This document shows positions 49,077 to 63,998 of a stretch of 64,000 nt of DNA, piece after piece. This DNA is from Vicinamibacterales bacterium (GTDB lineage Bacteria; Acidobacteriota; Vicinamibacteria; Vicinamibacterales; UBA8438): positions 745,000 through 808,999 of the forward strand of contig CBDBMY010000010.1 in NCBI GenBank assembly GCA_965207675.1, given 5' to 3'. Every line of letters begins with the position of its first letter. Within the stretch, counting starts at the first letter, position 1. Both the position numbers and the translations under genes were made by a program. The notes below the pieces were generated by a model. It was not told the origin of the DNA, did not search any database, and was given only the letters and a program-made list of their open reading frames with translations.

Positions 49077-52000
49077 CTAGAAGCCCCAGCGGATGCCGAA
49101 CTGCGCCTGCCGCGGGAAGCCGCTGCCCGCCCGCAGCCCGGTCAGCACGAGGAAGTTCCCGCGCATGTCACCGCTCGGGTTGTTGAAGTTGGCCCGGTTG
49201 GTGATGTTGAAGATGTCGAAGAAGACGTCGAGCGTCTGACGGTCGGCCCAGCGCGTCCGGTGGCCGAACCGGACGTCGAGCTGCAGGAAGTCGGGGCCGT
49301 ACGCGCCGTAGGGCCCGCCCGCGTAGTCGACGGCGATGGAGTCCTGTCCCGAGCCGGTGTAGCTGCCGGGGGACAGGAAGTCGGGGCCGATGCCGTTCTG
49401 GTCGAGGTCGAAGTTGCTGTCCTGCAGGTGGAACGGCTGGCCGCTCATGTAGCGCAGCACGCTGCTGAAGGTGATGCCGCCCATCACCGGGATCTCCGTC
49501 CGGCCGCTGACCGTGAAGTTGTGCCGGCGGTCGTACTGGCTCGGCCCCCAGAGGCAGTCGAGGTTGAGGGCGGCGCCGACCTGGCAGAAGTTGGTGTAGG
49601 TGAACCACAGGGAGTTGGTGTCCTTCTTCGCCAGGGCGTAGACGGCGCGGAAGCCCCAGTTGTCGGCGTAGCGCTTCTCCAGCTGGAAGTTCAGCGCGTT
49701 GTAGGTGCCGCTGCCGTTGCTGGTCGTGAAGCGGACGTCGCCGGCGTACCAGTCGTCGCCGTCCAGCGTGCCGGCCAGCACCCCGAACGCGTCCGACCGG
49801 GTGACAGGGTCGGTGCGGCCGGTGCCGGCCCGCAGGCGCGGGTTGAGGTTCTGCCGCATGTGGGTGTCGCGGTCGAGCTGCCGGACGTAGTCGACCGACG
49901 CCGAGAGCACCGGGGTCAGCTCGCGCTCGTAGCCGATCGTGAGCTGGTGCGAGTAGGGCTGCTCGCGGTAGGGGTTGTCGTACTCGATCGCGGCGGTGTT
50001 CAGGCGGCGGGACCCCGCCGGGAACAGCTCGTTCAGCACCTGCCGGTTCACCGTGGGGCACGCGCTGCCGTTCGGGTTCGCGGGGCAGCCTCCCGGCGTG
50101 ACCTCGATCAGGCGGAAGAGGTCGCCGCCGGGCGCCATGCCGTTCGAGGGACCGGGGTCGGCGGTGTCCTGCGGGAAGCTGGCGATGAACGAGTCGATGT
50201 ACGGCGTGTCCTCCCGGTAGTTGTTGACCGCGTATCCCAGGGTCTTGTCGTAGAAGATGCCGTAGCCGCCGCGCAGCACCGACCGGCCGTCGCCGGTGAG
50301 GTCGTAGGCGAAAGACGTGCGGGGCGCCCAGTTGTTGTAGTCGATGGGGTACGTCCGCCCGCCGAGGCCGGCCGGCGAGCCGATGCCCGGTCCGCCCAGG
50401 GCGGAGGGAACGCCGATGGCGTCGGGGCCGAAGAACGGGTTGTAGTCGTTGGCGATCGGGAAGATCTCGAGGTCGTAGCGGAATCCCGCGCTGATCGTCA
50501 GCCGGTCCGTCACCTGCCACTTGTCCTGCGCGAACGACTCCAGCGTGTGGAACTCCGAGGGGTACATCAACTGGCCGCCGACCCGGACGTGCAGCCGCTC
50601 GGGCCACGTGGAGAAGTCGCTCGCGCTGAACGGCATGTCGGAGTCGAAGATGAAGGTGCCGTTCTGATTGCCCTGGTCCCGCCACAGCATGTTGGTGCGG
50701 TGGTAGGTCGCGCCGAACTTCAGGTCGTGGTCGCCCATCCGGTCGGGCACGAACCACGAGAAGGTGTTCGAGTAGCTCCAGTGGTGGTCGCGGTTGCCGC
50801 GCGCGCTGTCGTGCGCGTTGTCCTGGAAGTTCCTGAAGTTGTACCGCGGCAGGCACTGCGACTGCAGGGTCGGGAAGTCGGCGTCGGAGGCGCCGAACCC
50901 GCCGAGGTCGCGCCAGCACGGATTGGCCCGCCACCACTGCTCGCGCGTCGCCGAGACGCGGAAGGTGTTGACCTGCGAGTTTCCGAGGACGCTGGTCCAG
51001 CTCCCGACGTAGGTCTGGTCGTTGTCGGTCTCGTCCTCCAGCGAGTTGAGGGTCGCCTGGCGGCCGCCGAGCAGGTCGAACTGGGGCGCGAGCTCGCGCA
51101 GCCAGCGGAACGCCCACGAGTTGCTGGCATTGACCTGGTGGTCGAAGCGGATCAGGGTGTTCCACGCCTCCCAGCTCTCGACCGTCGTGAAGTCCAGGTC
51201 GGGCCGGGTCGGGAACACCTTGGGCCGGCTCGGGGCGACGACCTGCCGCTCGAGGCTGAAGAAGAAGTGCGCCTGGTCGGGCACGATCGGCCCGCCGATC
51301 ACCCCTCCCCACTCCATCTTGCTGCTCGGCGCCTTTTCGAAACTCTCGTTGGCCGCCTCGAAGTAGTTGGGGCTCGTCAGCTTCTCGCTGGTGTAGTAGT
51401 CGAACGCGGCCCCCGTGAACGTGTTGGTGCCCTGCTTGGTGATCGAGTTGATGACGGCGCCGCGGGCCCGCCCGAACTCGGCGTCGAACTGGTTGGTCAG
51501 GACCTGGAACTCCTGCACCGACTCGAGGGGGACGCGGGTCTGGCCGCCCGCCCAGGTGCCGCTGTTGTCGTCGTTGTTGGCGGCGCCGTCCACCGACACG
51601 TTGTTCGTCCCCGGCGTCTGGCCGTTGGCGATCATGGTGTCGTTGCCGAGGCTCGACGACGGGTTGAACTGGATGCCCGGCAGCAGCGCGATGGCCGCGA
51701 AGTAGCTGCGGTTGCCGGTCGGCAGCTCGGTCAGGTCGCCGGTGTTGATGGTGCCCCCGACCTCGGACGAGGTGAGGTCGACGAGGGGCGCCGCCCCGGA
51801 CACGGTGATGGTCTCCTCGATGGCCCCGATCGTCATCACGATGTCGAGGTCGAGCGTCCGGCCCACGCCGATGGCGAAGTCGGGGCGCTCGAACGAGGCG
51901 AACCCCGGGAGCTGGGCGGTGACCCGGAACGTGCCGGGCAGCATCTGCCCCGCGAAGAAGCTCCCGTCCGCGCTCGAGACGACCTCGCGGAACGTGCCGG

Positions 52001-52160
52001 TATCCTGATTGGTGATCAGGATGCTGACGCCGGGCAGGGCGCCGCCCTGCTCGTCCGTCACCGAGCCGCGCAGCTCGGCGCGCCCCTGCTGGGCGTGGGT
52101 GGTGGCGCCCGCCGCGAACAGCAGGGCGACCGCGGCGAGAATGACCGTCGTTCGTCTCAT
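49077..52160 (-). CDS. TonB-dependent receptor with N-terminal carboxypeptidase-regulatory-like domain (Oar-like), intact
   Basis: MRRTTVILAAVALLFAAGATTHAQQ signal, then ELRGSVTDEQGGALPGVSILITNQDTGTF... and a C-terminal FPRQAQFGIRWGF. Confidence 0.85.
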   Translation of the reverse strand: MRRTTVILAAVALLFAAGATTHAQQGRAELRGSVTDEQGGALPGVSILITNQDTGTFREVVSSADGSFFAGQMLPGTFRVTAQLPGFASFERPDFAIGVGRTLDLDIVMTIGAIEETITVSGAAPLVDLTSSEVGGTINTGDLTELPTGNRSYFAAIALLPGIQFNPSSSLGNDTMIANGQTPGTNNVSVDGAANNDDNSGTWAGGQTRVPLESVQEFQVLTNQFDAEFGRARGAVINSITKQGTNTFTGAAFDYYTSEKLTSPNYFEAANESFEKAPSSKMEWGGVIGGPIVPDQAHFFFSLERQVVAPSRPKVFPTRPDLDFTTVESWEAWNTLIRFDHQVNASNSWAFRWLRELAPQFDLLGGRQATLNSLEDETDNDQTYVGSWTSVLGNSQVNTFRVSATREQWWRANPCWRDLGGFGASDADFPTLQSQCLPRYNFRNFQDNAHDSARGNRDHHWSYSNTFSWFVPDRMGDHDLKFGATYHRTNMLWRDQGNQNGTFIFDSDMPFSASDFSTWPERLHVRVGGQLMYPSEFHTLESFAQDKWQVTDRLTISAGFRYDLEIFPIANDYNPFFGPDAIGVPSALGGPGIGSPAGLGGRTYPIDYNNWAPRTSFAYDLTGDGRSVLRGGYGIFYDKTLGYAVNNYREDTPYIDSFIASFPQDTADPGPSNGMAPGGDLFRLIEVTPGGCPANPNGSACPTVNRQVLNELFPAGSRRLNTAAIEYDNPYREQPYSHQLTIGYERELTPVLSASVDYVRQLDRDTHMRQNLNPRLRAGTGRTDPVTRSDAFGVLAGTLDGDDWYAGDVRFTTSNGSGTYNALNFQLEKRYADNWGFRAVYALAKKDTNSLWFTYTNFCQVGAALNLDCLWGPSQYDRRHNFTVSGRTEIPVMGGITFSSVLRYMSGQPFHLQDSNFDLDQNGIGPDFLSPGSYTGSGQDSIAVDYAGGPYGAYGPDFLQLDVRFGHRTRWADRQTLDVFFDIFNITNRANFNNPSGDMRGNFLVLTGLRAGSGFPRQAQFGIRWGF

Positions 52161-52340
52161 GTGGGACCTCCCCTCGGTGAACGCGAATCGACGACTGCGA
52201 ACGGCAGGGCGCAGACGTAACCGCAGGAGCCGAGGGCCCTGCGTTTGCGAATCTGTCGTTCGGAAACAGTAATCATGCAAGGCGCGTGCCGGCCCTCGTC
52301 ATCCCCGCGGCGGGTGTGTTTCGGCCGTGTTCCAACAGGC

Positions 52341-52426
52341 TGGCCCGCCCCACGTCGTCGCCTTCGGCTTCGCTGGGCGCCCAACGAACCCTGCAGGAGT
52401 CCGCGCCGTTCTACGGCGCAGACTCC
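52341..52426. repeat. ~85-nt intergenic REP/MITE-like element, copy A
   Basis: TGGCCCGCCCCACGTCGTCGCCTTCGGCTTCGCTGGGCGCCCAACGAACCCTGCAGGAGTC...TTCTACGGCGCAGACTCC. Related copies lie at 53315-53396, 53397-53466 and, inverted, at 58474-58573. Confidence 0.6.
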
Positions 52427-52528
52427 CAGGGCGCCAGAAACGGCGGCACGACCGCCCATCCGGATCGAGCCCGGTCATTCACCATGTTGGTCTGGGACTC
52501 CAGTTTCTTGGATTGAATCCCCGACCGG

Positions 52529-52558
52529 TTGCGTACGGCTTTGCGGGCAGCGTACACT
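52529..52558 (+). promoter_or_regulatory. Putative promoter TTGCGT-N18-TACACT upstream of tRNA-Ser
   Basis: Spacing counted directly. The same architecture recurs at 54488-54517. Confidence 0.4.
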
Positions 52559-52739
52559 AGAAGGGCGTCCATACCAACCGCGCATGATCGCCGGCCGGCT
52601 CGGCAAGGGCGCGGGCGGATCGGTCGAGGTGCCAGATGAAACCCGACCGAGGAGCCGCGCGGGCGGGCGGTCGGACGGCGTGAAGAAGAGCGCCCCGTCC
52701 CGGGGTGCAGCCCACCGAGAGGTGGGTTCCGGTCCTTGC

Positions 52740-52830
52740 GGAGAGGTACCGAAGTGGTCGTAACGGGGGCGCCTCGAAAGCGTCTTGTCGGGTAACCGGC
52801 ACGTGGGTTCGAATCCCACCCTCTCCGCCA
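52740..52830 (+). tRNA. tRNA-Ser (anticodon CGA) with a long variable arm, CCA encoded
   Basis: Folded by hand: acceptor GGAGAGG/CCTCTCC, 3-bp D-stem, anticodon loop CTCGAAA, variable arm, T-arm GTGGGTTCGAATCCCAC. Confidence 0.9.
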
Positions 52831-52850
52831 CTCCTTCCTGGCAGAGACCC

Positions 52851-53279
52851 ATGACCAGATTCGCCCTGGCGTTCACGGTCGCCGGCCTGCTGGCCGCCTG
52901 CGCCGCCGAAGAGCCGGCCGGGCCGGAGCCCGCGGCAGTGAGGACGCTGCCCGGCCCTGGCGGCGTCGCGACCATACCCTTCACCTCGGTCCGCGTCTGG
53001 TTCAACGACGAGACCGATCCCGGGCAGAGCTCGCTCGCGCTGGAAGGCCCCGACGGCAGCATTTCGCTGGTCGGGGTTCATTCCATGGGCGAGGGTGACC
53101 TGATGGCGGCCGTCAGCGGGGCGACGTACCCGGGCGAGTACACTCTCACGTGGACGGCGGTGAGCACAGGCGGCGCGACCGCCACCGGCGACGTGCAGTT
53201 CACGGTGGCGTCGCCCGAGCCCGCGACGGACGAGCCCCCGGCCGGCGACGGGGCCCAGGTGCCGGGTGACCGGGACTGA
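52851..53279 (+). CDS. CopC-domain-like lipoprotein (canonical His ligands not evident)
   Basis: Lipobox LLAAC. The pattern VRVWFNDE...SSLALEGPDGSISL...YPGEYTLTWTAVSTGGATATGDVQFTV follows the CopC/YobA fold pattern. Confidence 0.55.
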   Translation: MTRFALAFTVAGLLAACAAEEPAGPEPAAVRTLPGPGGVATIPFTSVRVWFNDETDPGQSSLALEGPDGSISLVGVHSMGEGDLMAAVSGATYPGEYTLTWTAVSTGGATATGDVQFTVASPEPATDEPPAGDGAQVPGDRD

Positions 53280-53314
53280 GCCCGGCTGGCGCCTCCGGGT
53301 CCGGCCGCGGGTCC

Positions 53315-53466
53315 TGGCCCCGCCCATCGTCGCCTCTCGGTTCCGCCGGGCGCCCAACCATCCCTGCGGAGTCGGTGGTTCTACGGCGCAGACTCCTGGC
53401 CCCGCCCATTGTCGGCTGCGGCTTCGCTTGGCGCCCGGCCAACCGCCGTGCCACGGCGCAGACGCC
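53315..53466. repeat. Two adjacent copies (B and C) of the ~85-nt REP/MITE-like element
   Basis: See copy A. Both end in ACGGCGCAGAC(T/G)CC. Confidence 0.6.
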
Positions 53467-54167
53467 TAGAGCTCCAGCCGGCCGTTGAAGACCATGTCCT
53501 CGAGCTCGAACGTCCGCTCGATGCTCGCCTCGGCGATCTCCGTGACGAACTCGACCTCCTCGTCGGCGAGGGTGATCGCGTCGCCTCGGGGAAACAGGTA
53601 CAGGATGACGGCGCCGTTGCCTTCCGGCTCCGCGGCGGCCTCGATGGGCAGGATGGGCCGCTTCCCGGGGCGCTCCAGGCGCGCCCCGGCCATGAGCGCG
53701 GCGGGGTCGAGCCGCGCGAAGGGGCGGGGCAGGCCGGCGACGACGATGAAGTAGCCGGTCGGGCGCTGGGCCAGGAGCTGGCGCCCCGCCGAATCGAGGG
53801 CGCTTCCCTCGCCGATCCGGCCGCGGACGATGGCCTGCCGCATCGGCAGCGCGCTGCGCCACTGCACGACGAGCCGGCTCTGCCGGGCCGGGCCGAACCC
53901 GTCGCCGCCTCCGAAGCCGCGGCCCCCGCGGCCGCCACCGCCCACCCCGCCGATCCCCCCCGCGACAGGGTTCCGGTCGTTGAGGGCCGTCTGCGGCGCC
54001 CGCGGGAACACCACGGTGATGCGCTTGGCCCACGGCGAGTTGGTCACCATGCGCTGGACGTCCCGGTCGGACCAGTCGGTGAACTCCTTCTCGTCCCAGA
54101 AGTCCGCCGCCAGTACCGCGCAGGCCGCCAGCCAGACGATCGCGATCGAGCCGTGCCGTCGTCTCAT
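53466..54167 (-). CDS. Secreted hypothetical protein with an internal Gly/Arg-rich patch
   Basis: Signal MRRRHGSIAIVWLAACAVLAA, WDEKEFTDWSDRDVQRMVTNSPWAKR, then GGIGGVGGGGRGGRGFGGGDGFG. Confidence 0.6.
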   Translation of the reverse strand: MRRRHGSIAIVWLAACAVLAADFWDEKEFTDWSDRDVQRMVTNSPWAKRITVVFPRAPQTALNDRNPVAGGIGGVGGGGRGGRGFGGGDGFGPARQSRLVVQWRSALPMRQAIVRGRIGEGSALDSAGRQLLAQRPTGYFIVVAGLPRPFARLDPAALMAGARLERPGKRPILPIEAAAEPEGNGAVILYLFPRGDAITLADEEVEFVTEIAEASIERTFELEDMVFNGRLEL

Positions 54168-54487
54168 GTTGCACCTTCCCTTCCAAGACGCAGCCGCACG
54201 ACGTACGGGGAGGCAGTCCCCGCCGCCGGAAACGGTACCTCGGCAAGCCGCGTGCCGGCAACAGTCGCCGTCGCGACGGGTGTGTTCGGCCGTGTTGCAC
54301 GGCTCTGGCACGAGCGGTCGCGGCGTGGCCGCCCCTCAAGGCAGCGTCCTCGTTCGGCATGTCGATACAGCGAATCCGACCTGATCGGGGGGACGCATGG
54401 CTCCGGGGGACCTCCAGGTCTGGAGGCGCAGAGGCAAGGTGCCGCGATCGGCGGCAATCAGTCAACCTGGGTCAGATCCCGGGCCGG

Positions 54488-54517
54488 TTGCGAACGGGCT
54501 GGCCGGCAACGTACACT
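54488..54517 (+). promoter_or_regulatory. Duplicate promoter-like element TTGCGA-N18-TACACT
   Basis: Same spacing and -10 hexamer as 52529-52558. Confidence 0.35.
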
Positions 54518-54728
54518 GAACGGCGCTAGTACCGACCGTGCGGTGGTCGCGTCCGGCCCGGCAGGCGCAAGCAGGTGGCTTGAGACGCCGGCCGAGTTCG
54601 ACCGTCGCCGCGCGGGTGGCCGTCAACGGTAGATCGGGCTTGGCCCGGCCCCGGCTCGTCGGCCCGTCAGCGTGAAGAAGGGCGCCCCGCCCGGGGCGCA
54701 GCCCGCCCGAGGCGGGTCCGTCCTGTGC

Positions 54729-54820
54729 GGAGAGGTACCGAAGTGGTCGTGACGGGGGCGCCTCGGAGGCGTCTTGTCCGGTAATCGGCACGTGGGTTCG
54801 CATCCCATCCTCCTCCGCCA
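54729..54820 (+). pseudogene. Degenerate duplicate of tRNA-Ser (anticodon position reads CGG; T-loop and acceptor stem damaged)
   Basis: Collinear with 52740-52830. Differences are anticodon loop CTCGGAG, T-loop TTCGCAT, and a 3-prime acceptor strand CCTCCTCC that no longer pairs with GGAGAGG. Confidence 0.65.
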
Positions 54821-54911
54821 TTGTCTCGTCGCAAGGCATCGAGGTGCGGCGGCCGCATCGTTCACGACAACACACGAATGACGATGCGGGCCGTGCCGGG
54901 GAGTAGAGAGC

Positions 54912-55562
54912 ATGCGTATGTCGGTGAAGGGAAAGAGTGTTCGGTTGTTCGGCGTCGTCGCGGTGGTTGCGGCGGCGGCCGTCATGGCGGGCGACGCGGC
55001 GGCGCAGAACCGGGCGCTCAGCACGCGCGGGCACACGGCCACGCAGATCGCGGGCAGCTACAACGCCGAGGGTCGCTACGAGGGGGGCCGCTGGATCGAC
55101 ATCCACTATGGCCGGCCCATCCTGCGCGGCAGGCAGGGCATCTTCGGCGGCGGCGGGGAGTACGGCCAGCGCATCTACGCCGGGGCGCCGCTCTGGCGGG
55201 TCGGCGCGGACCAGACGACCACCTTCACCACCGAGGCGGACCTCCTCATCGGTGGGCAGCGGCTCGCCGCCGGGGAATACACCATGTTCGCCGACCTGGC
55301 GGATCCGTCGGCGTGGACGCTGATCTTCGCCACGTGGGGCGTCAAGCAGACCTTCGGGGACGACGACCCGAATACGCTGTGGGGCGCCTACGGCTACGAC
55401 GACAGCAGGGACGTCATGCGCACGGTCATGTCGGTGGAGACCGCCGGCCGGTCCCTGGACCAGTTGCAGATCGGGTTCCTCGACATGACCCGGCAGGGCG
55501 GCACGATGTACGTGCACTGGGACGACCAGTTGGCGACCGTGTCGATCGAGCTGGCCGACTAG
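54912..55562 (+). CDS. DUF2911 domain-containing secreted protein
   Basis: Signal peptide, then IHYGRPILRGRQGIFGG...APLWRVGADQTTTFTTEADLLIGGQRLAAGEYTMF...WTLIF, matching the DUF2911 pattern. Confidence 0.75.
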   Translation: MRMSVKGKSVRLFGVVAVVAAAAVMAGDAAAQNRALSTRGHTATQIAGSYNAEGRYEGGRWIDIHYGRPILRGRQGIFGGGGEYGQRIYAGAPLWRVGADQTTTFTTEADLLIGGQRLAAGEYTMFADLADPSAWTLIFATWGVKQTFGDDDPNTLWGAYGYDDSRDVMRTVMSVETAGRSLDQLQIGFLDMTRQGGTMYVHWDDQLATVSIELAD

Positions 55563-55671: not shown

Positions 55672-58218
55672 ATGGGCCCAGGCCGCCCGCCGGTCGTGAT
55701 TCGTACCTCCGCGTCTCGCGGCGCAGCCGCCGACCTCCGCGTCGAGGTGCCCGCCTACGAGCGCCGCCGGCTCGAGGACGTCGGGTTCATGACCGCCATG
55801 ACCCTGACCCTGCTCGGCAACTACCAGCAGACGGGGCACTTCGGGGGGCCGCTGGCCTATACGCCGTACAACGTCGCCCTGCACCTCGCCGGGCCCGAGA
55901 ACGGCGGCCTGTGCTACGACTACCGCCGGCCGAAGCACCCGTTCGGCGACAAGCTGCTGCTCGCCGGCGGCCACAACATCCCGACCCTGTACGCCCTGTG
56001 GATCATCATGGGCGAGGCGATGGCCCGCCGCCACGCCGCGACCGGCGACGACCGCTTCCGGGTCGACCCGGACGTCGCGATGCTGTCCATCGACTGCCTG
56101 GGCTTCCGCCGCGGGGCGGGGGCCCTGCGGACCCTGCTCGCCGACGCCGGCGTCGAGGGCGATCCGCTCTTCGCCCAGGCCGGGCTGCGCGGCATCCGCT
56201 CGCTCGCCGGGCACTCCGAGACCACCGACCTCATCAACGACGTCAACGGCGGCCCGTCGGGCATCGGCGTCGCCACGGCGGCGGGCAAGGCCGCCTTCTG
56301 GGACTTCATGGGGGCGGGGGCGTCCCCGAAGGTCGTGGCCCTCGAGGGCGAGTTCGCGATGACCTCGGGGCATTCCCAGGAGATGAAGACCCAGGCCGTG
56401 GCCCAGCAGGTCGGCAAGCGGCTGCGCATTCTGCTCTCCTACAACAACGCGGGCATCGACGACTCGCTCGTGGGCGGCGTGGTGTCCGAGTCGATGGACG
56501 GCTACGAGGTCGCCGACCAGTGGTCCGCCTACGGGTGGAACGTGCTGTCGGTCGAGGACGGCAACGACTACGACCACGTGCTGGCCGCGTTGCGGGCCAT
56601 GGAGACCTGGGACCCCGAAGACCGGCGCCCGATGATCGTCGTCGGCCGCACCACGAAGGGGTGGTGGCCGGCGGCGCGCGACGGCGCCATTCCCGGCTTC
56701 GGCGCCCAGGTGGTGGGCTACCCCAGCCACCCCTACTCCATGAAGATGAACTCGCCGTACTTCGTGGCCCTCGCCGAGACCTTCGAGCGGCGCTACGGCG
56801 TCTCTTTCGAAGGCATCCGCGACGGCGCGGCGGGCGGCGAGGCGGAGCGGCTGCGGCAGTTCAAGACCAACGTCGACGTGGTGATGTCGCTGCTCGAGCG
56901 GGACGGCCTCGGGGACTGGCTGACGGACCGGATGGTCGAGATCGGCGACCGCGTGCGCGACGACGTGACGCTGCGGTTCGACGTGACGAGGGACCCCTTC
57001 CGCGACGACCGCCTGCGGGTGGACCGCCTGCCGGTCGAGCCGCAGAAGGTGAGCGCGCGGCTGAACGGCGACGCGCGGGAGATCGGCATCGAGCTGTTCA
57101 AGCCGGCGGGCGCCAACGCCGGCACGCGGCGGGCGATCTCCGAGGTCATCAAGTGGATGAACCACGTTACCGGCAACCGCTTTCTCACCCTCTCGGCTGA
57201 CCTGTCCAGCTCGATCAACGTCGAGAAGGGATCGCTGACCGGCCACTACGACCCCTGCTCCAATCAGGCGGGGACGCGTCTCAAGGCGGCCATTCAGGAA
57301 GCCGGTAACGCGTCGACGGCGGTGGGCCTCGTGGGCCAGACCGCGTCCCTCGACCCGGCCGTGCACAGCGGGGTCTGGGCCCTGAGCGGGAGCTACGGCG
57401 CGTTCACGCCGCTCATGTACCTGCCCGCGCGCATCTGGAGCCAGCAGAACCAGGACAGCCCGTTCCGGGTCGGCGTGCTCCACATCCTCGCCGGGCACTC
57501 GGGGCCCGAGACGGCGGCCGACGCGCGCACCCACTTCGGCATCTTCGCGCCCCAGGTGTGGAAGCTGTTCCCCCGCGGGCAGGTCATCACCCTGAGCTTC
57601 TGGGACTACAACGACGTGGCGCCGGGCTACTTCGCGGCGGCGGAGATCGCCGCCCGCGATCCCAAGGTGGGGGTGATCGTGCTCGAGGTGGCGCGGCCGG
57701 ACCTGCCGGTGGCCGACCGCTCGACGTTCGCCGACTCCGATCTGCGGTCCGCCGCCAAGGGGTTCTACGTGCTGCGCGACTTCGCGCCGGGCCGGCCGAA
57801 GCACGGGTACGTGGTCGCCCAGGGGGCCAGCTCGACCTTCAATCTCGTCAAGGCGCTGCCGGCCCTCGAGGAGCGGGGGGTCAACGTGAAGGTCGTCGCG
57901 GCCATCAGCGAGGAGCTGTTCGACCGCCAGCCCGCCGCCTACCGCGACGCGGTGCTGCCGCCCGAGGCGCGCTACGACCTGATGGTGGTGACGACGGGGA
58001 CGCGGCGCGTGTGGCCTCTTCGCGACGCGGGGCCGCTGACGGGGGAGTACTCGCTCGTCTCCGACTGGCACGACCGCTGGCTGACCGGCGGCCTGGAGCC
58101 GGACGTGATTGCCGAGGCGCGCCTCGACGAGGCGTCCGTCATCGCGGGAGTGGTGCGGTTCGCGGAAGAGCGCGACGCGCGCCTCGCCCGGCAGCGGCAC
58201 GCGCTGGCCGCCCTGTGA
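55672..58218 (+). CDS. Transketolase-family thiamine-diphosphate enzyme, long form (about 850 aa)
   Basis: TGHFGGPLAY, GGPSGIGVATAAG, LEGEFAMTSGHSQE...LLSYNNAGID (TPP/Mg motif region). The C-terminal Pyr and TK-C-like regions include AGHSGPETAADARTHFG. The start is uncertain (ATG 55672 or GTG 55747). Confidence 0.7.
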   Translation: MGPGRPPVVIRTSASRGAAADLRVEVPAYERRRLEDVGFMTAMTLTLLGNYQQTGHFGGPLAYTPYNVALHLAGPENGGLCYDYRRPKHPFGDKLLLAGGHNIPTLYALWIIMGEAMARRHAATGDDRFRVDPDVAMLSIDCLGFRRGAGALRTLLADAGVEGDPLFAQAGLRGIRSLAGHSETTDLINDVNGGPSGIGVATAAGKAAFWDFMGAGASPKVVALEGEFAMTSGHSQEMKTQAVAQQVGKRLRILLSYNNAGIDDSLVGGVVSESMDGYEVADQWSAYGWNVLSVEDGNDYDHVLAALRAMETWDPEDRRPMIVVGRTTKGWWPAARDGAIPGFGAQVVGYPSHPYSMKMNSPYFVALAETFERRYGVSFEGIRDGAAGGEAERLRQFKTNVDVVMSLLERDGLGDWLTDRMVEIGDRVRDDVTLRFDVTRDPFRDDRLRVDRLPVEPQKVSARLNGDAREIGIELFKPAGANAGTRRAISEVIKWMNHVTGNRFLTLSADLSSSINVEKGSLTGHYDPCSNQAGTRLKAAIQEAGNASTAVGLVGQTASLDPAVHSGVWALSGSYGAFTPLMYLPARIWSQQNQDSPFRVGVLHILAGHSGPETAADARTHFGIFAPQVWKLFPRGQVITLSFWDYNDVAPGYFAAAEIAARDPKVGVIVLEVARPDLPVADRSTFADSDLRSAAKGFYVLRDFAPGRPKHGYVVAQGASSTFNLVKALPALEERGVNVKVVAAISEELFDRQPAAYRDAVLPPEARYDLMVVTTGTRRVWPLRDAGPLTGEYSLVSDWHDRWLTGGLEPDVIAEARLDEASVIAGVVRFAEERDARLARQRHALAAL

Positions 58219-58573: not shown

Positions 58574-59113
58574 TCACTCGCGCCGGTAGACCAGCGTGGC
58601 TTCGACGTCGCCGCGCCGCGTCGACCGTACGGTCTCGACGGTCATCGTGCGCCCGTCGGCGCTCAGCGTCCGCCGCTCGGTGAACTCCAGCGAGAAGTCG
58701 CCGAGCGGCGTGCTGGCGCTCTGCGTGCCCTCGGTGACGAGGGCGGCGCCGTCCCAGCGCGACCGGGCCGTCTGCTCGCCTCTCGGTCCCGAGTTGGTGC
58801 TCTCCTCGCCGTCGAGGCGGTAGGTCGCGGCCCGGCTGCCGCCGTCGGACTGCTGCTCGATGATCAGCATGGTCGGGGTCTGGACGATGACGAGCGTCCG
58901 GGCGCCCCCGCCGAATCCGCCCCCGCCCTGCCGCCGACCGCCCCCGCCGCCGAACAGCCGGCGGCCCCTGCCGCCGATATCGGGAAGCTCGCTGGCTTCG
59001 GCGTCGAGGTGCCACGTGCCCGAGAAATCGGTGCCCTGGGCCGCCGCCGGCGCCGCGAGGGCCGCCGTCGCCAACAGAGCGAGGGGAACGAACGCAATAC
59101 GGAGTCTCGTCAT
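58574..59113 (-). CDS. Small secreted hypothetical protein with a Gly/Arg-rich patch
   Basis: Signal MTRLRIAFVPLALLATAALAAPAAAQG, GTWHLD, GGRGRRLFGGGGGRRQGGGGFGGGA, then a beta-rich tail. Confidence 0.6.
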   Translation of the reverse strand: MTRLRIAFVPLALLATAALAAPAAAQGTDFSGTWHLDAEASELPDIGGRGRRLFGGGGGRRQGGGGFGGGARTLVIVQTPTMLIIEQQSDGGSRAATYRLDGEESTNSGPRGEQTARSRWDGAALVTEGTQSASTPLGDFSLEFTERRTLSADGRTMTVETVRSTRRGDVEATLVYRRE

Positions 59114-59289: not shown

Positions 59290-59565
59290 GTGCCGCACGC
59301 ACCACTTCGCCGCTTGGCCTCCAAAACGTTCGGCCTGCTGGCGGCCGACGAGGGCCGGCCTGTGCCGCGCGCCCGCCACCTCGTCGCATTGGCGTCTGCA
59401 CGTGCGGCGGCCGACGAGGGCCGGCCTGTGCCGCGCGCCCGCCACCTCGTCGCATTGGCGTCTGCACGTGCGGCGGCCGACGAGGGCCGGCCGTGCCGCG
59501 CGCCCGCCACCTCGTCGCATTGGCGTCTGCACGTGCGGCGGCCGACGAGGGCCGGCCTGTGTCGC
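59290..59565. repeat. Tandem array of a 66-bp unit (3 near-perfect copies plus partial or degenerate flanking copies)
   Basis: GCGGCCGACGAGGGCCGGCCTGTGCCGCGCGCCCGCCACCTCGTCGCATTGGCGTCTGCACGTGCG starts at 59341, 59407, 59473 and 59538. The third unit is 1 nt shorter. Each unit has the GCACGTGC palindrome and a CGACGAGG...CCTCGTCG inverted repeat. Confidence 0.85.
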
Positions 59566-59711: not shown

Positions 59712-59740
59712 TTGACAGCGCCGTGACGCCGCCCCATAAT
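59712..59740 (+). promoter_or_regulatory. Near-consensus sigma70 promoter TTGACA-N17-CATAAT
   Basis: Spacing counted directly. It lies about 335 nt upstream of the start of the five-repeat protein gene. Confidence 0.45.
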
Positions 59741-60074
59741 TGGAGCCGGGTACGCGGTCAAGCCCATCCCTCCAGGCATCGGCTTTTCCCAGGGCCGATA
59801 TGAGCAGTACGTAGGCGTTGTCCGTCGTTCGCGACGGAGCAGTGCTTCATGGGACAGTCCGAACAGAGCGTCTTGCGGTGGCCGCCCGAAACGGGCGGGT
59901 CATTGCGCCTGTCCGTGGACGCCGTCGTGGCCCGCGGTGGCGGCAACGACGCCACGCCGCGGCCGCGCTGAGCCTCGGCGCCGCCGCGCGGCAGATCGTT
60001 CCGCGAAAGCGCGGCTCGGGCTCGTTCCGTGAGGGTTTCGGGAGCAGGTCATGGGAACCGTCGAGGAGGGGAGC

Positions 60075-62309
60075 ATGTCGAACCGGTCCGGGATGCTGGC
60101 TGGTCTGACCGCGTCGCCGTGGGCGTGGCGCGGGGTCGTTCTGGCGGGGGCGCTCGCGGTGGCGCAGCCCGCGGTGACGTTCGGAGCGGGAGTGGATACG
60201 TACAAGTGGCTCGGTGAGCTGGTGGCGCTCGACGAGGGTGCGCGCAAGCTGACCGTCACCTCGAGGGTCATGGCCCCGGGGGGCCTCGACGTCGCGGGGC
60301 TGGAGCCGGGTGATCCCATCCTGATCACGTGGTCGGGGTCGGACCACGGCGCCCAGGGCATCGCCGCCGTCGCGCCCGACGACGGCGCGGGCCTGTCGCC
60401 GGGGGACCGGTTCCGGCTCCGGGCGCGGTTCGTGGCCGCCGACGCGGCGCGGCAGTCGCTGACGTTCTCGGTCAGCGGCCCGTCCAGCGAGCTGGCCCCG
60501 TTGCGGGCGGCCATGCAGGGCACCTGGGCGACCGTCACCTCGCCGCATCGGCCCGCGCACGGGCCGGCCGCGGTGACGGCCGTCGATGCCTACGGGGCCG
60601 GGAACGGCCACGGGCCGGCCGCTGGCGACACCTACGACTGGAACGCCGAGCTGGTCTCGCTCGACGACGCTGGCCGGTCGCTGACGGTCAGGTCGCGCCT
60701 CGTGTCGCCGACCGCGGCGGCCGACGGGCTGGAGCCGGGCGACGCCGTCCGCATCACCTGGTCGGGCTACCGTGACCGTGCGGCCGGCGTGCGGGCCGTG
60801 CGCCCCGCCGACGACTCCGGGCTCTGGGGCAGCGAGCGGTTCCTGCTCGACGCCGAGCTCGTCGCGGTGGACTCGCGCTATGTGACGTTCTCGGTCGAGC
60901 CGCCCGCCGACGGCATCGATGCGGTGCGGGCCCTGAGGCCGGGCGCGTGGGCCACCGGCACGTCGCCGCACCGGCCGTCGGCCAAGGCCAAGGCGGTCGC
61001 CGCCTACGCGGCGTCGCCGGCCGACGTCCCGAAGACCGCGGACGCCGCCTACCGCTGGCACGGCGAGCTGGTTTCCCTCGACGGCGCCGGCAAGACCCTG
61101 ACCGTCAAGTCGCGCCTGGTGTCGGACGCGGCCGCGGCGTCGGCGTCGGCCCTCGAGGCGGGCGACTCCATCGTCATCACCTGGTCGGGCTTCGAGGACC
61201 GGACCGACGGCATCCGCGCCGTCGAGCGCGACTCGGGGCTGTGGGGCGACGGCGGCTTCCTGCTGCAGGCGACGTTCGTCGAGACCGACTCGGCGCGGCG
61301 CTACCTGACGTTCTCGGTCGAGCCCCCCGCCGACCGCGTCACGGAGCTGCGCGCCATGACCAGCGGGAGCTGGGCGACGCTCTCGTCGCACCACCGTCCC
61401 GCCGCCGGCGAGGCCCCGGTGCTGACCGTCGACGCCTATGCGCCGTCCATGGCCCCGCGGCTGGCCGGGAGGGCTCCGGCCGCCGGCGACACCTACGAGT
61501 GGCGGGGCGCGCTGGTGTCCCGCGACGAGGACGCCGGCACCATCGACGTCCGGTCCCGCATCGTCTCGCCGTCGGGGAGCGTGGCGGCCGATCTGAAGGC
61601 CGGCGACCCCATCGTCATCACCTGGTCCGGGTTCGACGACCAGGCCGACGGCATCCGCGCCGTCAGGCGCGACGACGGGTCGGGGCTGTGGGGCGGCGAC
61701 CGCTTCCTGCTGAAGGCGAAGTTCGCCGCGGCCGAGGGCCAGTACGTGACCTTCACGGTCCAGCCCCCGGCCGACAGCGCCCCGCTGATGCAGGGGCTCA
61801 CTCCCGGCGCCTGGGCCATCGGCACCTCGCCCCACCGGCCCGACTTCGCGGCCGAGGCGGTGACCCTGGTCGACGCCTACGACCCCGCCCGCCGCGCCCG
61901 CCGCTACGCGTGGAACGGCGAGCTGGTGTCGCTCGACAAGGCCGACGCCGTCATCACCGTGTCGGCGCCGGTCGAGGAGCACGTCTTCCGCTACGTCGAG
62001 CGGTTCGGCAAGGGCGACCAGGTCGTGCTGATCTGGACGCCGACCGCGAACGGCGACCGCGCCATCCGGTACCTGGAGCTGCGGGAGCAGTCGGTGCTCG
62101 AGCACGGCTACGTGCTGCCGGTGCAGTTCGAGGGGTCCGACGCGGACAGCGGCCGCATCACCTTCAGCACCCCGATCCCCGCCCGCGCGGCGAGGGCCCT
62201 CAAGGGCGCCGGGCCGGGCGACTGGATCACCGCGACCTCGCTGTTCGATCAGTCCTACGAGCACGCCGCCATCATCGCGATGGCGGTGGAGAGCGACCTC
62301 GCGGAATAG
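60075..62309 (+). CDS. Secreted protein made of five tandem ~140-aa repeats of an unrecognised domain
   Basis: GAGGAGG SD 5 nt before the ATG at 60075; an upstream in-frame ATG at 60051 is also possible. Signal-like N-terminus. The repeat consensus DTYxWxGELVSLDxxGxTLTVxSRxVSP...LExGDxIxITWSG...GIRAV...LWG..RFLLxAxFV...YxTFSVxPPAD...LRA...GxWATxTSPHRP...AVxxVDAY starts at nt 60195, 60627, 61041, 61488 and 61899. Confidence 0.75.
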   Translation: MSNRSGMLAGLTASPWAWRGVVLAGALAVAQPAVTFGAGVDTYKWLGELVALDEGARKLTVTSRVMAPGGLDVAGLEPGDPILITWSGSDHGAQGIAAVAPDDGAGLSPGDRFRLRARFVAADAARQSLTFSVSGPSSELAPLRAAMQGTWATVTSPHRPAHGPAAVTAVDAYGAGNGHGPAAGDTYDWNAELVSLDDAGRSLTVRSRLVSPTAAADGLEPGDAVRITWSGYRDRAAGVRAVRPADDSGLWGSERFLLDAELVAVDSRYVTFSVEPPADGIDAVRALRPGAWATGTSPHRPSAKAKAVAAYAASPADVPKTADAAYRWHGELVSLDGAGKTLTVKSRLVSDAAAASASALEAGDSIVITWSGFEDRTDGIRAVERDSGLWGDGGFLLQATFVETDSARRYLTFSVEPPADRVTELRAMTSGSWATLSSHHRPAAGEAPVLTVDAYAPSMAPRLAGRAPAAGDTYEWRGALVSRDEDAGTIDVRSRIVSPSGSVAADLKAGDPIVITWSGFDDQADGIRAVRRDDGSGLWGGDRFLLKAKFAAAEGQYVTFTVQPPADSAPLMQGLTPGAWAIGTSPHRPDFAAEAVTLVDAYDPARRARRYAWNGELVSLDKADAVITVSAPVEEHVFRYVERFGKGDQVVLIWTPTANGDRAIRYLELREQSVLEHGYVLPVQFEGSDADSGRITFSTPIPARAARALKGAGPGDWITATSLFDQSYEHAAIIAMAVESDLAE

Positions 62310-62351
62310 GAGGCGTCCTCTCGGCGGCGAGTAGGCGTCGGCGGGCAAGTG

Positions 62352-62391
62352 AAGCCCCGCGTAGCGGAATGCTCGCTGCGCGGGGCTTTTC
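62352..62391 (+). terminator. Rho-independent terminator
   Basis: AAGCCCCGCG-(loop)-CGCGGGGCTT followed by TTTCG, 43 nt after the stop at 62309. Confidence 0.7.
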
Positions 62392-62530
62392 GTCTCTCGT
62401 CACTCGCGGGTGCTTCTGGCCGCAGCGACCCTGTAGCTGACGGTCTTGTGCGGCGGGACAAGCTCCCCTGACGCAGGTTGTTGCGGCCCCGTGTGCGAAC
62501 CCTGATGACGGGGTGCGTTTCCTTCCCTGA

Positions 62531-62699
62531 CCGTGGCTGCCCGCCGGCGAGCGCGGTCACCGTCCGTTCGGTCCCTCCTCACCGGGTCAGGCGGCCCGGA
62601 CCCACCGGATGAGCGTCGACCGTGACTGCCCGCCGGTGAGCGCGGTCGCCGTCCGTTCGGTCCCTCCTCACCGGGTCAGGCGGCCCGGACCCAGCGGAT
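62531..62699. repeat. 89-bp tandem duplication covering the 3-prime end of the minus-strand permease gene and its downstream flank
   Basis: 62531-62610 and 62620-62699 are near-identical. Both include TCAGGCGGCCCGGACCCA, the reverse complement of ...WVRAA-stop. Confidence 0.8.
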
Positions 62700-63998
62700 C
62701 AGGGTCTTCAGGTCGGGCGGCTTGCCGTACATGAGCAGCCCGATCCGGAACACCTTCGCGGCGACCCACACCGCGCCCACCACCGACGCGAGGCCGACGG
62801 CGATCGACAGCCAGACCTCCCACCACGGCGGCGGCTGGCTCGACCCCAGGCGCAGGAGCATGCCGAACGAGTTGATGGGGGGCAGGTGGCTGACGGCGAC
62901 GGCGAGGGTCGAGCCGGGGTTCCGGGACACCGCCGGCCAGATGAACCAGGGGACCATGAGCACCAGCATCAGCGGCATCTGCAGCGACTGCGCCTCGGTC
63001 ATGTCGTTGACGGCCGCCCCCACCGCCAGCATCAGCGACCCGAACATGAAGAACCCGATGAGGAAGAAGATCGCGAGGTAGACGATCAGCCACGGATCGA
63101 GGAGGCCGAACAGCGAGAACGTCGACAGCAGGACCAGCCCCATGGCGACGTAGAGGCCGATCATGACGAGGCTGATGGCGACGGCCCCGAGCAGCTTGCC
63201 CGCCATCAGCTCCATGGGGGACACCGCCGACAGGAGCACTTCGACCACCCGGCTCGACTTCTCCTCCACCGTCGACGTCAGCATGGTCTGGCCGCCCCCC
63301 ATGATGCCCATGAACATCAGGATCATGAACGCCATGGGCAGCATGAAGTTGAGCCCGTCGACCGTCTCGCGCTCCGCGTCGGGACTCACCGTCGTCGACC
63401 CCGGCCTCGGCACCCGGAGCAGCGCGTCGATGGCGTCCCGGTCCAGGGACTGCGCAGCGACGCGGGCGTCGACGATGGCGTCACGGACGCTGTCGTGGAT
63501 GAAGTCGAGGTCGCGGTCGTCGAGGCCGGGCGGCACGAACAGGTCGTAGGTGCCGAACCCTTCGGCGGCGTCGGCCGTGACCGCTTGCTCGTGGATCACG
63601 ATCAGGGCGGTGTGCCGCAGCCCGTCCGCCTCCTCGTTGAGCCACGCCTTCGCCGCCTCGACGTCCGCGTCGGCCGGCAGCGCCAGCAGCCGCACGTTCG
63701 GGACCGGCCCCAGGGTGTCGTCCATCGTCTGCGCGATCGCCGCCTCGGCCATCCCGCGGACCGCCTCGGGAGCGGCGCCGAGGCCGCGGCGGAACTCGTC
63801 CATCCGCCGCTCGGCCACCGCCTCCGGATCGAGGGCGGCGCTCAACGCCGGCAGGACGGCGCCGGTGGGGTCGACGACGGCGTACTCGCCCTCGACCTGG
63901 AAGCTCCGGTCGTCGAAGATCCGCGGCCCCACGAGGACCATGACCACGCCGATGGCCGGCGCGATGAGCAGCCCGGCGATGAAGCCCTTGGTCAGCAC
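62676..63998 (-). CDS. ABC-2 family (NatB/YhaP-like) transporter permease with a large extracytoplasmic domain; N-terminus probably outside the window
   Basis: TM1, a ~190-aa soluble region, then the ABC-2 core (TVEEKSSRVVEVLLSAVSPMELMAGKLLG... and multiple TM helices). The ORF reaches the window edge. Confidence 0.75.
   Translation of the reverse strand: MLTKGFIAGLLIAPAIGVVMVLVGPRIFDDRSFQVEGEYAVVDPTGAVLPALSAALDPEAVAERRMDEFRRGLGAAPEAVRGMAEAAIAQTMDDTLGPVPNVRLLALPADADVEAAKAWLNEEADGLRHTALIVIHEQAVTADAAEGFGTYDLFVPPGLDDRDLDFIHDSVRDAIVDARVAAQSLDRDAIDALLRVPRPGSTTVSPDAERETVDGLNFMLPMAFMILMFMGIMGGGQTMLTSTVEEKSSRVVEVLLSAVSPMELMAGKLLGAVAISLVMIGLYVAMGLVLLSTFSLFGLLDPWLIVYLAIFFLIGFFMFGSLMLAVGAAVNDMTEAQSLQMPLMLVLMVPWFIWPAVSRNPGSTLAVAVSHLPPINSFGMLLRLGSSQPPPWWEVWLSIAVGLASVVGAVWVAAKVFRIGLLMYGKPPDLKTLIRWVRAA

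Follow-up and report, generated by a model that had tools for sequence, protein, structure and literature searches.

A predicted exported protein of tandem β-modules and its conserved leader RNA motif in a Vicinamibacterales acidobacterium

The stretch analyzed here, 64,000 nucleotides (nt) of contig CBDBMY010000010.1 from a Vicinamibacterales bacterium (GenBank assembly GCA_965207675.1) and hereafter called the window, carries a forward-strand gene for a protein of five tandem modules, preceded by a long leader with a conserved RNA motif at its 5' end. The coding sequence runs from position 60075 to 62309 (+) of the window and specifies 744 amino acids (aa) plus a stop codon. The open reading frame (ORF) from 60051 to 62309 (+) was confirmed in the window, and its first ATG, at 60051, is an alternative start that would give 752 aa; ATG 60075 is the likelier start, and both this codon and its Shine-Dalgarno (SD) sequence are kept in 20 orthologs. 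The SD region, GAGGAGGGGAG, occupies 60063 to 60073 (+), with GGAGG at 60065 to 60069, 5 nt before the ATG. GC fractions at the three codon positions of the 60051 to 62309 frame are 0.71, 0.57, and 0.96, and the third-position value (GC3), in a window of 67 to 76% GC, shows that 60075 to 62309 (+) is the frame that codes. The antisense ORF of 833 aa at 59847 to 62348 is a compositional artifact of the high GC content. Orthologous loci in reference genomes number 21, at 79 to 96% identity, and all 89 homolog clusters are labeled hypothetical. The ratio of nonsynonymous to synonymous substitution rates (dN/dS), 0.21 to 0.43 against six orthologs, indicates purifying selection that is somewhat relaxed, as is common for envelope proteins. 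The gene stands alone, always with a long intergenic region upstream; it is real, monocistronic, and self-contained, and it belongs to a Vicinamibacterales acidobacterium.

The product begins with a predicted Sec-type signal peptide (60075 to 60164 [+], aa 1 to 30), identified by hydropathy and by comparison with homolog N termini. It shows the n-region, h-region, and AXA site of a Sec-exported protein: basic residues R4 and R19, a hydrophobic core at 16 to 30, and cleavage after A28-V29-A30 and before Q31. Equivalent N termini occur in all homologs and single-unit relatives examined, and a low-confidence helix covers residues 15 to 28 in the full-length structural model. Neither a lipobox nor a twin-arginine motif is present in the signal peptide. 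The mature protein would be about 75 kDa, with a pI of 5.0 and no cysteine. An earlier, sequence-only reading of this DNA had called the protein secreted; the signal peptide is the sole basis for that claim and supports export, be it to the periplasm, the outer membrane, or the surface.

Beyond the signal peptide, the protein is almost entirely repeats. A hidden Markov model (HMM) built from the five units places their envelopes at aa 41 to 184, 185 to 322, 323 to 465, 472 to 610, and 609 to 744, and adding the 8 residues of the longer ORF reproduces the starts at 49, 193, 331, 480, and 617 given by the sequence-only reading for five tandem copies of about 140 aa. Units 1 (60195 to 60626 [+], aa 41 to 184) and 2 (60627 to 61040 [+], aa 185 to 322) were delimited by MAFFT alignment, BLASTP, and the unit HMM; unit 3 (61041 to 61469 [+], aa 323 to 465), which is followed by a short low-confidence linker, by alignment, BLASTP, HMM, and the full-length model; and unit 4 (61488 to 61904 [+], aa 472 to 610) by its HMM envelope. 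Unit 5 (61905 to 62306 [+], aa 611 to 744; BLASTP and HMM) is a divergent C-terminal cap, VSAPVEEHVFRYVERF...IRYLELREQS...LFDQS. By BLASTP, the first four units are mutually 46 to 54% identical (E values of 1e-33 to 1e-46), and unit 5 is 28 to 31% identical to them (1e-10 to 3e-13); a separate estimate of these identities is 47 to 56% and 25 to 29%, respectively. At the DNA level, units 1 to 4 are 66 to 71% identical where similarity is detectable, and unit 5 is essentially undetectable; the repeats are therefore old and, in agreement with the sequence-only reading, do not reflect recent amplification.

Each repeat had also been described as having two conserved halves. Both motifs are evident in the MAFFT alignment, and the halves are moreover homologous to one another, with a profile-profile hhalign probability of 95.6% (E = 1.3e-8, 59 columns), so that each unit of about 140 aa derives from an ancient duplication of a subdomain of about 65 aa. 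An acidic insert found in some homologs exactly between the halves of unit 1 fits this two-subdomain build. An AlphaFold2 model of unit 4 alone, made with 117 aligned units, is confident (predicted local distance difference test [pLDDT] of 86.4, predicted template modeling [pTM] score of 0.83) and nearly all β. In the full-length model (pLDDT 70.6, pTM 0.40), the five units are folded and the linkers between them are of low confidence, and on these models the protein would consist of ten small β-barrel-like subdomains arranged as beads on a string. The invariant positions of the module are Trp, Gly, and hydrophobic residues, and no conserved residues of catalytic or metal-ligand type were found among the aligned units and relatives. 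Units 1 to 4 share a conserved His in the motif SPH(R/H/W/Q)P, which unit 5 and most single-unit relatives lack.

The module could not be assigned to any family in the libraries searched, in agreement with the sequence-only reading. For the full protein, the best Pfam match has an E value of 0.053 (13.8 bits against a cutoff of 26.6) and the best NCBIfam match one of 0.12; none of 117 units scanned singly reached a curated cutoff, and ten single-unit relatives had no Pfam or NCBIfam match covering the module. A profile search of PDB sequences gave nothing below E = 0.29. We took a Foldseek E value of 1e-3 or less with a TM score of at least 0.5 as the mark of fold membership for a confident model; searched against the PDB, the unit model reached at best E = 0.058 with TM scores of 0.34 or less, and the full-length model gave only generic multi-β-domain matches with TM scores of about 0.1. 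Scans against PHROGs and PADLOC returned nothing meaningful, and a phage or defense origin thus has no support from them. The module therefore defines a protein family without an entry in the domain and structure libraries searched. The general kind, a secreted tandem-repeat β-module protein, is familiar; the module, its pseudodimeric build, and the leader RNA are what these libraries lack.

Below threshold, matches recur faintly to RNase II S1, TOBE, CusF, LSM, and DUF5666, all of them small β-barrel families, which makes it probable that the subdomains are small barrels. The exported CusF-like or OB-type barrels (CusF_Ec [PF11604], TOBE_2, DUF5666, S1) resemble the module in having all-β subdomains of about 65 to 70 aa and a strand pattern of G-x-V-x-x-D ... 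T-V/F ... G-D-x-V-x-V/I. They differ in that the matches, at E values of 0.01 to 0.09, fall under the curated cutoffs, that the module lacks a Met/His metal site, and that its subdomains always occur as a fused A-B pair, the pairs being tandemly repeated. Membership in the CusF or OB fold was rejected on E values of 0.012 to 0.087 and 13 to 16 bits against a cutoff of 27, together with an hhalign probability of 0.3% between the unit profile and E. coli CusF. The His/Met/Met (plus Trp) metal site of CusF_Ec has no counterpart in the module, which has no conserved Met and in which the SPH His is not general. The best Foldseek probabilities (0.5 to 0.8), and the best local resemblance, were to riboflavin-synthase-like and FAD-binding (siderophore-interacting protein) barrels. 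Riboflavin synthase likewise pairs two tandem homologous barrels. These matches have E values of 0.017 or more and TM scores of 0.34 or less, the module shares neither sequence similarity nor a cofactor motif with them, and they are cytosolic cofactor-binding enzymes, unlike the exported module.

The family is far wider than the five-unit protein. An exhaustive profile search of 1.84 billion representatives recovered 307 proteins at E values of 1e-3 or less and 220 at 1e-10 or less; as these represent clusters at 50% identity, the family comprises at least 307 such clusters. Most of the 307 are 165 to 185 aa long (about 175) and consist of a signal peptide and one unit. By sequence, then, the module is not peculiar to the 744-aa repeat protein, and its commonest form is a predicted exported protein of one module. 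A second type of single-unit protein is similar to the divergent unit 5 and often has an additional C-terminal domain of about 100 aa with two cysteines and no family match; in one relative of this type, the module is joined to a CxxCH-containing cytochrome c' domain (PF01322, E = 2e-6). The two-cysteine domain follows the pattern G-x-W...C...G-x-C...F-T-x-x-K in many of the relatives P0150, P0138, P0156, P0160, P0166, and others. Relatives of 280 to 310 aa bear a C-terminal extension domain. One single-unit gene lies on a contig of a metagenome-assembled genome labeled Gammaproteobacteria and another comes from Terriglobia. Source names of family members are all hypothetical or obviously automatic; an IMG record labels one fragment "tolerance to divalent cations," an automatic and unverified label.

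Repeat number, which the sequence-only reading had suggested comparing across homologs, does vary: multi-unit proteins in Vicinamibacterales have 3 to 7 units. Unit 1 and the terminal cap unit keep their positions across subfamilies, and the internal units expand, contract, and homogenize, so module number is evolutionarily plastic. Internal units are 90 to 96% identical within the homologs P0032 and P0060, against 47 to 56% among units 1 to 4 in the window, which by sequence comparison indicates recent unit duplication or concerted evolution in those homologs; the units of the window are old by contrast.

A σ70-like promoter at 59712 to 59740 (+), with a −35 box TTGACA (59712 to 59717), a 17-nt spacer, and a −10 box CATAAT (59735 to 59740), agrees with the consensus at 11 of 12 positions, where 0.1 such sites were expected in shuffled sequence. 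Both hexamers are exact in 16 of 20 orthologous loci, the spacer sequence varies, and the same layout recurs in distant subfamilies. Downstream, an intrinsic terminator (62351 to 62392 [+]) consists of a 17-bp GC-rich hairpin (62351 to 62389) followed by UUUU; the 3' region folds at −56 kcal/mol, and hairpin and U-tract are present in all 12 orthologs checked, the stem varying. The near-consensus promoter, long leader (about 330 nt), own SD, and clean terminator that had been noted from the sequence thus all hold up among orthologs. The 66-bp tandem array of 3.4 copies at 59340 to 59565, 150 to 370 nt upstream of the −35 box, had been taken as a further sign of tight regulation, and this part of the claim fails. 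Its copies match each other at 98%, with no further copy in the window, and the array is absent from all 20 orthologous loci, the closest of which hold short fragments of a single copy. We therefore regard it as a strain-specific minisatellite with no evidence of regulation; it is recent, intergenic, and probably functionless. Regulation is more plausibly carried by the 5' part of the leader.

When 20 orthologous leaders are aligned, roughly the first 150 nt (59745 to 59895) prove near-invariant and better conserved than the coding sequence, and 59900 to 60040 is variable. The conserved block opens with a motif at 59748 to 59799 (+) made up of hairpin P1 (59748 to 59765), the loop of which contains GGUCA; a CU-rich linker (59766 to 59777) with CCCUCC, which is either CCCUCC or CCUUCC across subfamilies; and hairpin P2 (59778 to 59799), with the loop UUUUCCCAGG in the window and CUAYUCCCARG in other clades. 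The invariant loop sequences are GGUCA, CGGCU, and CCCA. The rest of the block (59800 to 59895 [+]) includes hairpin P3 (59821 to 59838 [+], UCCGUCG-UUCG-CGACGGA), present in both the minimum free energy (MFE) and centroid folds, and the start of a possible upstream ORF. The motif begins 6 to 9 nt after the −10 box and was found in every subfamily examined except L003 and L035; at L003, the family gene abuts an upstream ORF and the leader motif is absent. It also lies upstream of family genes at loci L042, L034, L045, L037, and L033.

Scanning 185,579 reference genomes for the invariant core gave 27 matches, compared with an estimated 11 or so expected by chance. Sixteen of them are in Vicinamibacterales or other Acidobacteria, and every one of these follows a TTGAC...TATAAT promoter and lies 260 to 450 nt upstream of a module-encoding gene; the remaining 11, in other phyla, have neither the promoter nor a family gene. 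A covariance model built from the L002-type clade alone finds the element in its expected position in the window's clade, at E values of 0.002 to 0.9 in 554 kb, and has no match in any chance locus. Of the cells in the alignment made with this model, 92.7% pair, and with slid partners the figure is 33 to 43%; five base pairs change on both sides, and none of 500 shuffles attains the covariation score. The motif thus has the conserved, covarying structure and the constant place before genes of a single family that mark a structured cis-regulatory RNA in the generic sense. No relative of it was detected by cmscan against Rfam 15 at E values of 1 or less in the leader of the window or in those of three other subfamilies. 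An RNAalifold consensus on the MAFFT alignment was discarded in favor of the covariance-model alignment; it had paired none but invariant columns, because the MAFFT alignment is not structure-aware.

How the leader might act is suggested by its position and by its complementarities. Classically, a 5' stabilizer takes the form of a hairpin at +1. In this respect the motif resembles the 5'-terminal stabilizer hairpins and anti-SD leaders of E. coli ompA and of slpA genes, which also place a hairpin at about +1 of the mRNA for an envelope protein, and it resembles anti-SD leaders in that its CU-rich stretch complements the SD. It differs from these leaders in matching no Rfam family, in being conserved across genera, and in being tied to one gene family; both functions, stabilization and anti-SD pairing, are proposals here, and the SD pairing is supported in one clade only. 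Within the window's clade, the ribosome-binding region is complementary to both the CU linker and the P2 loop, at a free energy of about −28 kcal/mol, the linker-SD complementarity has z-scores of −2 to −3 against shuffled SDs, and the MFE and centroid folds of the window leader both pair UCCCUCC with GGAGGGG. Complementarity between the P2 loop and the SD (CUACUCC with GGAGUAG) was rejected as a universal mechanism, being no stronger than that with shuffled SDs outside the window's clade. An alternative pairing between an invariant GGG and the CCC of the P2 loop is possible, and no attenuator terminator is visible in leader folds of either the window's or the L002-type clade. Long structured 5' untranslated regions (UTRs) are known to stabilize the mRNAs of abundant surface-layer (S-layer) proteins, giving them long half-lives (PMC3666127).

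The upstream ORF at 59849 to 59971 (+) (40 codons, MGQSEQSVLRWPPE..., beginning MGQSEQSVLRW) is no more than putative. Its ATG comes just after P3, which contains GGAG, and all 20 orthologs keep this ATG and an open frame of 27 to 49 codons. Open frames of about 40 codons are easily obtained at 75% GC. Variant codons comprise 17 synonymous and 53 nonsynonymous changes, and the codon-position pattern is weak. We therefore do not retain it as a conserved leader peptide: it is always open, and its substitution pattern is not clearly coding.

Overall, we consider it moderately probable that the gene product is a nonenzymatic component of the cell envelope with a structural or multivalent binding role, probably expressed abundantly, and that the leader governs the stability of the mRNA and/or its translation. 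The near-consensus promoter would probably drive high-level production, and the 5' hairpins of the mRNA would stabilize the transcript and/or gate its translation; in the window's clade, the CU-rich linker could pair with the GGAGG ribosome-binding site. The exported protein would reside in the periplasm or at the surface, and the number of modules would set its length or valency.

Several observations weigh against this interpretation. The expression level is read from indirect signals, namely promoter, leader, and terminator, and the signal peptide was called manually from sequence. No anchoring or lattice-forming domain was found in Pfam or NCBIfam, the single-unit relatives lie in heterogeneous contexts, and the faint CusF, S1, and TOBE matches leave room for small-ligand binding. 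On the RNA side, covariation was scored on an alignment that had been fitted to the model and in which two of the matches are probably false. In the L002-type clade, linker-SD complementarity is no better than chance, and whole-leader folding z-scores are not significant (−1.6 and +0.7); for these two reasons, SD occlusion is a hypothesis limited to the window's clade.

A bolder reading joins the two parts of the locus as a new β-barrel superfamily, a fused pseudodimer of barrels of about 65 aa lacking any structural relative in the PDB, under the control of a new class of cis-regulatory leader RNA. Such an RNA, with its two hairpins, invariant GGUCA and CUAYUCCCARG loops, and anti-SD-like CU linker, would control multi-module genes in Vicinamibacterales, responding to a ligand or to the encoded protein itself and so switching the translation of an envelope protein made in abundance. 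We put this forward tentatively, as an outcome we would not expect to hold in full.

One alternative is an S-layer or other self-assembling surface lattice in which the modules tile the cell surface and the promoter and leader give high, stable expression. Tandem-repeat surface and S-layer proteins, such as Lactobacillus SlpA, likewise combine a signal peptide, a modular all-β build, and lineage-variable repeat number with an acidic, cysteine-free composition, and they too come from monocistronic genes whose promoters are strong and whose mRNAs begin with long structured 5' UTRs; such UTRs stabilize S-layer mRNAs (PMC3666127). Also in favor are the mass of about 75 kDa, the leader of about 330 nt, the strong terminator, and a fairly relaxed dN/dS and length variation of the sort seen in surface proteins. 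The module is, however, unrelated to Ig, Big, FN3, PKD, or SLH domains; no SLH or other anchoring domain and no S-layer family was matched in Pfam or NCBIfam. The commonest family members, moreover, are single modules of 175 aa, which are unlikely lattice formers, and crossing the outer membrane of a diderm takes more than a Sec signal peptide. A literature search on S-layers in Vicinamibacteria gave nothing relevant, and we judge a lattice unlikely.

Equally unlikely, in our estimate, is that the leader RNA is the key element and the protein incidental, the RNA being a riboswitch-like device that responds to a ligand or a protein, perhaps by binding the product itself. This would be compatible with any role for the protein, and it draws on the conservation of the first 150 nt or so above that of the coding sequence, on the family specificity of the motif, on covariation-supported hairpins with invariant loops, and on the alternative GGG/CCC pairing and a CU linker able to pair with the SD. 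However, the motif is rather small and simple to be an aptamer and is not followed by an attenuator terminator, the SD pairing is not conserved across clades, and a 5'-terminal stabilizer hairpin explains the +1 position more simply. As the motif has no Rfam relative, nothing points to a class of ligand.

More doubtful still is a periplasmic ligand or metal sponge, or a chaperone, in which CusF/TOBE/OB-like barrels bind their target and the repeats multiply capacity. Independent family members recur in matching CusF_Ec, TOBE_2, S1, and DUF5666 faintly, the SPH(R/H/W/Q)P His is conserved in units 1 to 4, one relative carries the cytochrome c' fusion, a gene with a CopC domain is found in the window 7 kb from the repeat gene, and the automatic, unverified IMG label on one fragment mentions divalent cations. 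All of the matches, however, are under curated cutoffs, and the hhalign comparison with CusF is negative; Met and Cys are not conserved, the His is missing where noted above, and no metal-resistance genes are consistently adjacent. Finally, although high-GC DNA yields many long spurious ORFs and several overlap the locus, including the 833-aa antisense one, the proposal of a chance or antisense frame in 75%-GC DNA, which the sequence-only reading had raised against itself, is effectively refuted by a GC3 of 0.96 in the 60075 to 62309 frame only, a repeat architecture kept in homologs down to 43% identity, dN/dS below 0.45, a confident unit model, and the conserved promoter, SD, and terminator.

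Vicinamibacterales are abundant, largely uncultured soil bacteria, and very little is known of their envelope biology. A module missed by current domain and structure libraries, present in at least 307 clusters at 50% identity and in more than one phylum, is a concrete target for structural genomics and Pfam curation, and the leader RNA, being specific to the family, may be a new cis-regulatory element, a proposal open to testing. For gene expression in Acidobacteriota, the clean promoter, leader, SD, and terminator of the locus offer a useful model and possibly a source of parts. If the protein turns out to be a main constituent of the envelope or matrix, it would be relevant to surface construction in these bacteria and to their contact with particles and polymers in the soil. 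The locus is a well-delimited target for structural and RNA work, and nothing in it overturns expectations.

The genomic neighborhood, where the sequence-only reading had suggested looking for conserved genes, is shared in part. Close orthologs have the same neighbors, a transketolase-like gene, a small secreted protein, and an ABC-2 permease; distant subfamilies and single-unit relatives occur in unrelated contexts, with no conserved partner. We therefore set synteny aside as a clue to function. The transketolase-like gene (55672 to 58218 [+]) encodes an 848-aa protein with weak matches to transketolase N- and C-terminal domains (E values of about 1e-9) and is by DNA the most conserved gene of the neighborhood, at 88 to 96% identity across orthologous loci. 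The 179-aa signal-peptide protein encoded at 58574 to 59113 (−), syntenic with the repeat gene in close orthologs only, has a Gly/Arg-rich low-complexity stretch, a β-rich C-terminal part, and no Pfam match. A Rosetta-stone link between it and the C-terminal extension of the 280- to 310-aa relatives was considered and dropped, there being no similarity. Farther upstream are a TonB-receptor-like outer membrane β-barrel with a CarboxypepD_reg domain (49077 to 52280 [−]), a CopC-domain protein (52785 to 53279), and a DUF2911 protein (54912 to 55562); this stretch, from 49077 to 55562, is rich in envelope genes, and no link to the repeat gene emerged. At loci L001 and L002, the divergent upstream genes (6420 to 7367 [−] and 6428 to 7390 [−], respectively) encode related proteins of about 315 aa, 50% identical over 109 aa (E = 8e-33), with no Pfam match and no counterpart beside the window gene. 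Downstream of the repeat gene, an 89-bp direct repeat (62529 to 62706; 2.0 copies, 93% identical) covers the last part of the ABC-2 permease gene, which lies on the minus strand with its stop at 62676, together with the sequence immediately downstream of that gene. It looks like a partial tandem duplication of the end of the permease gene.

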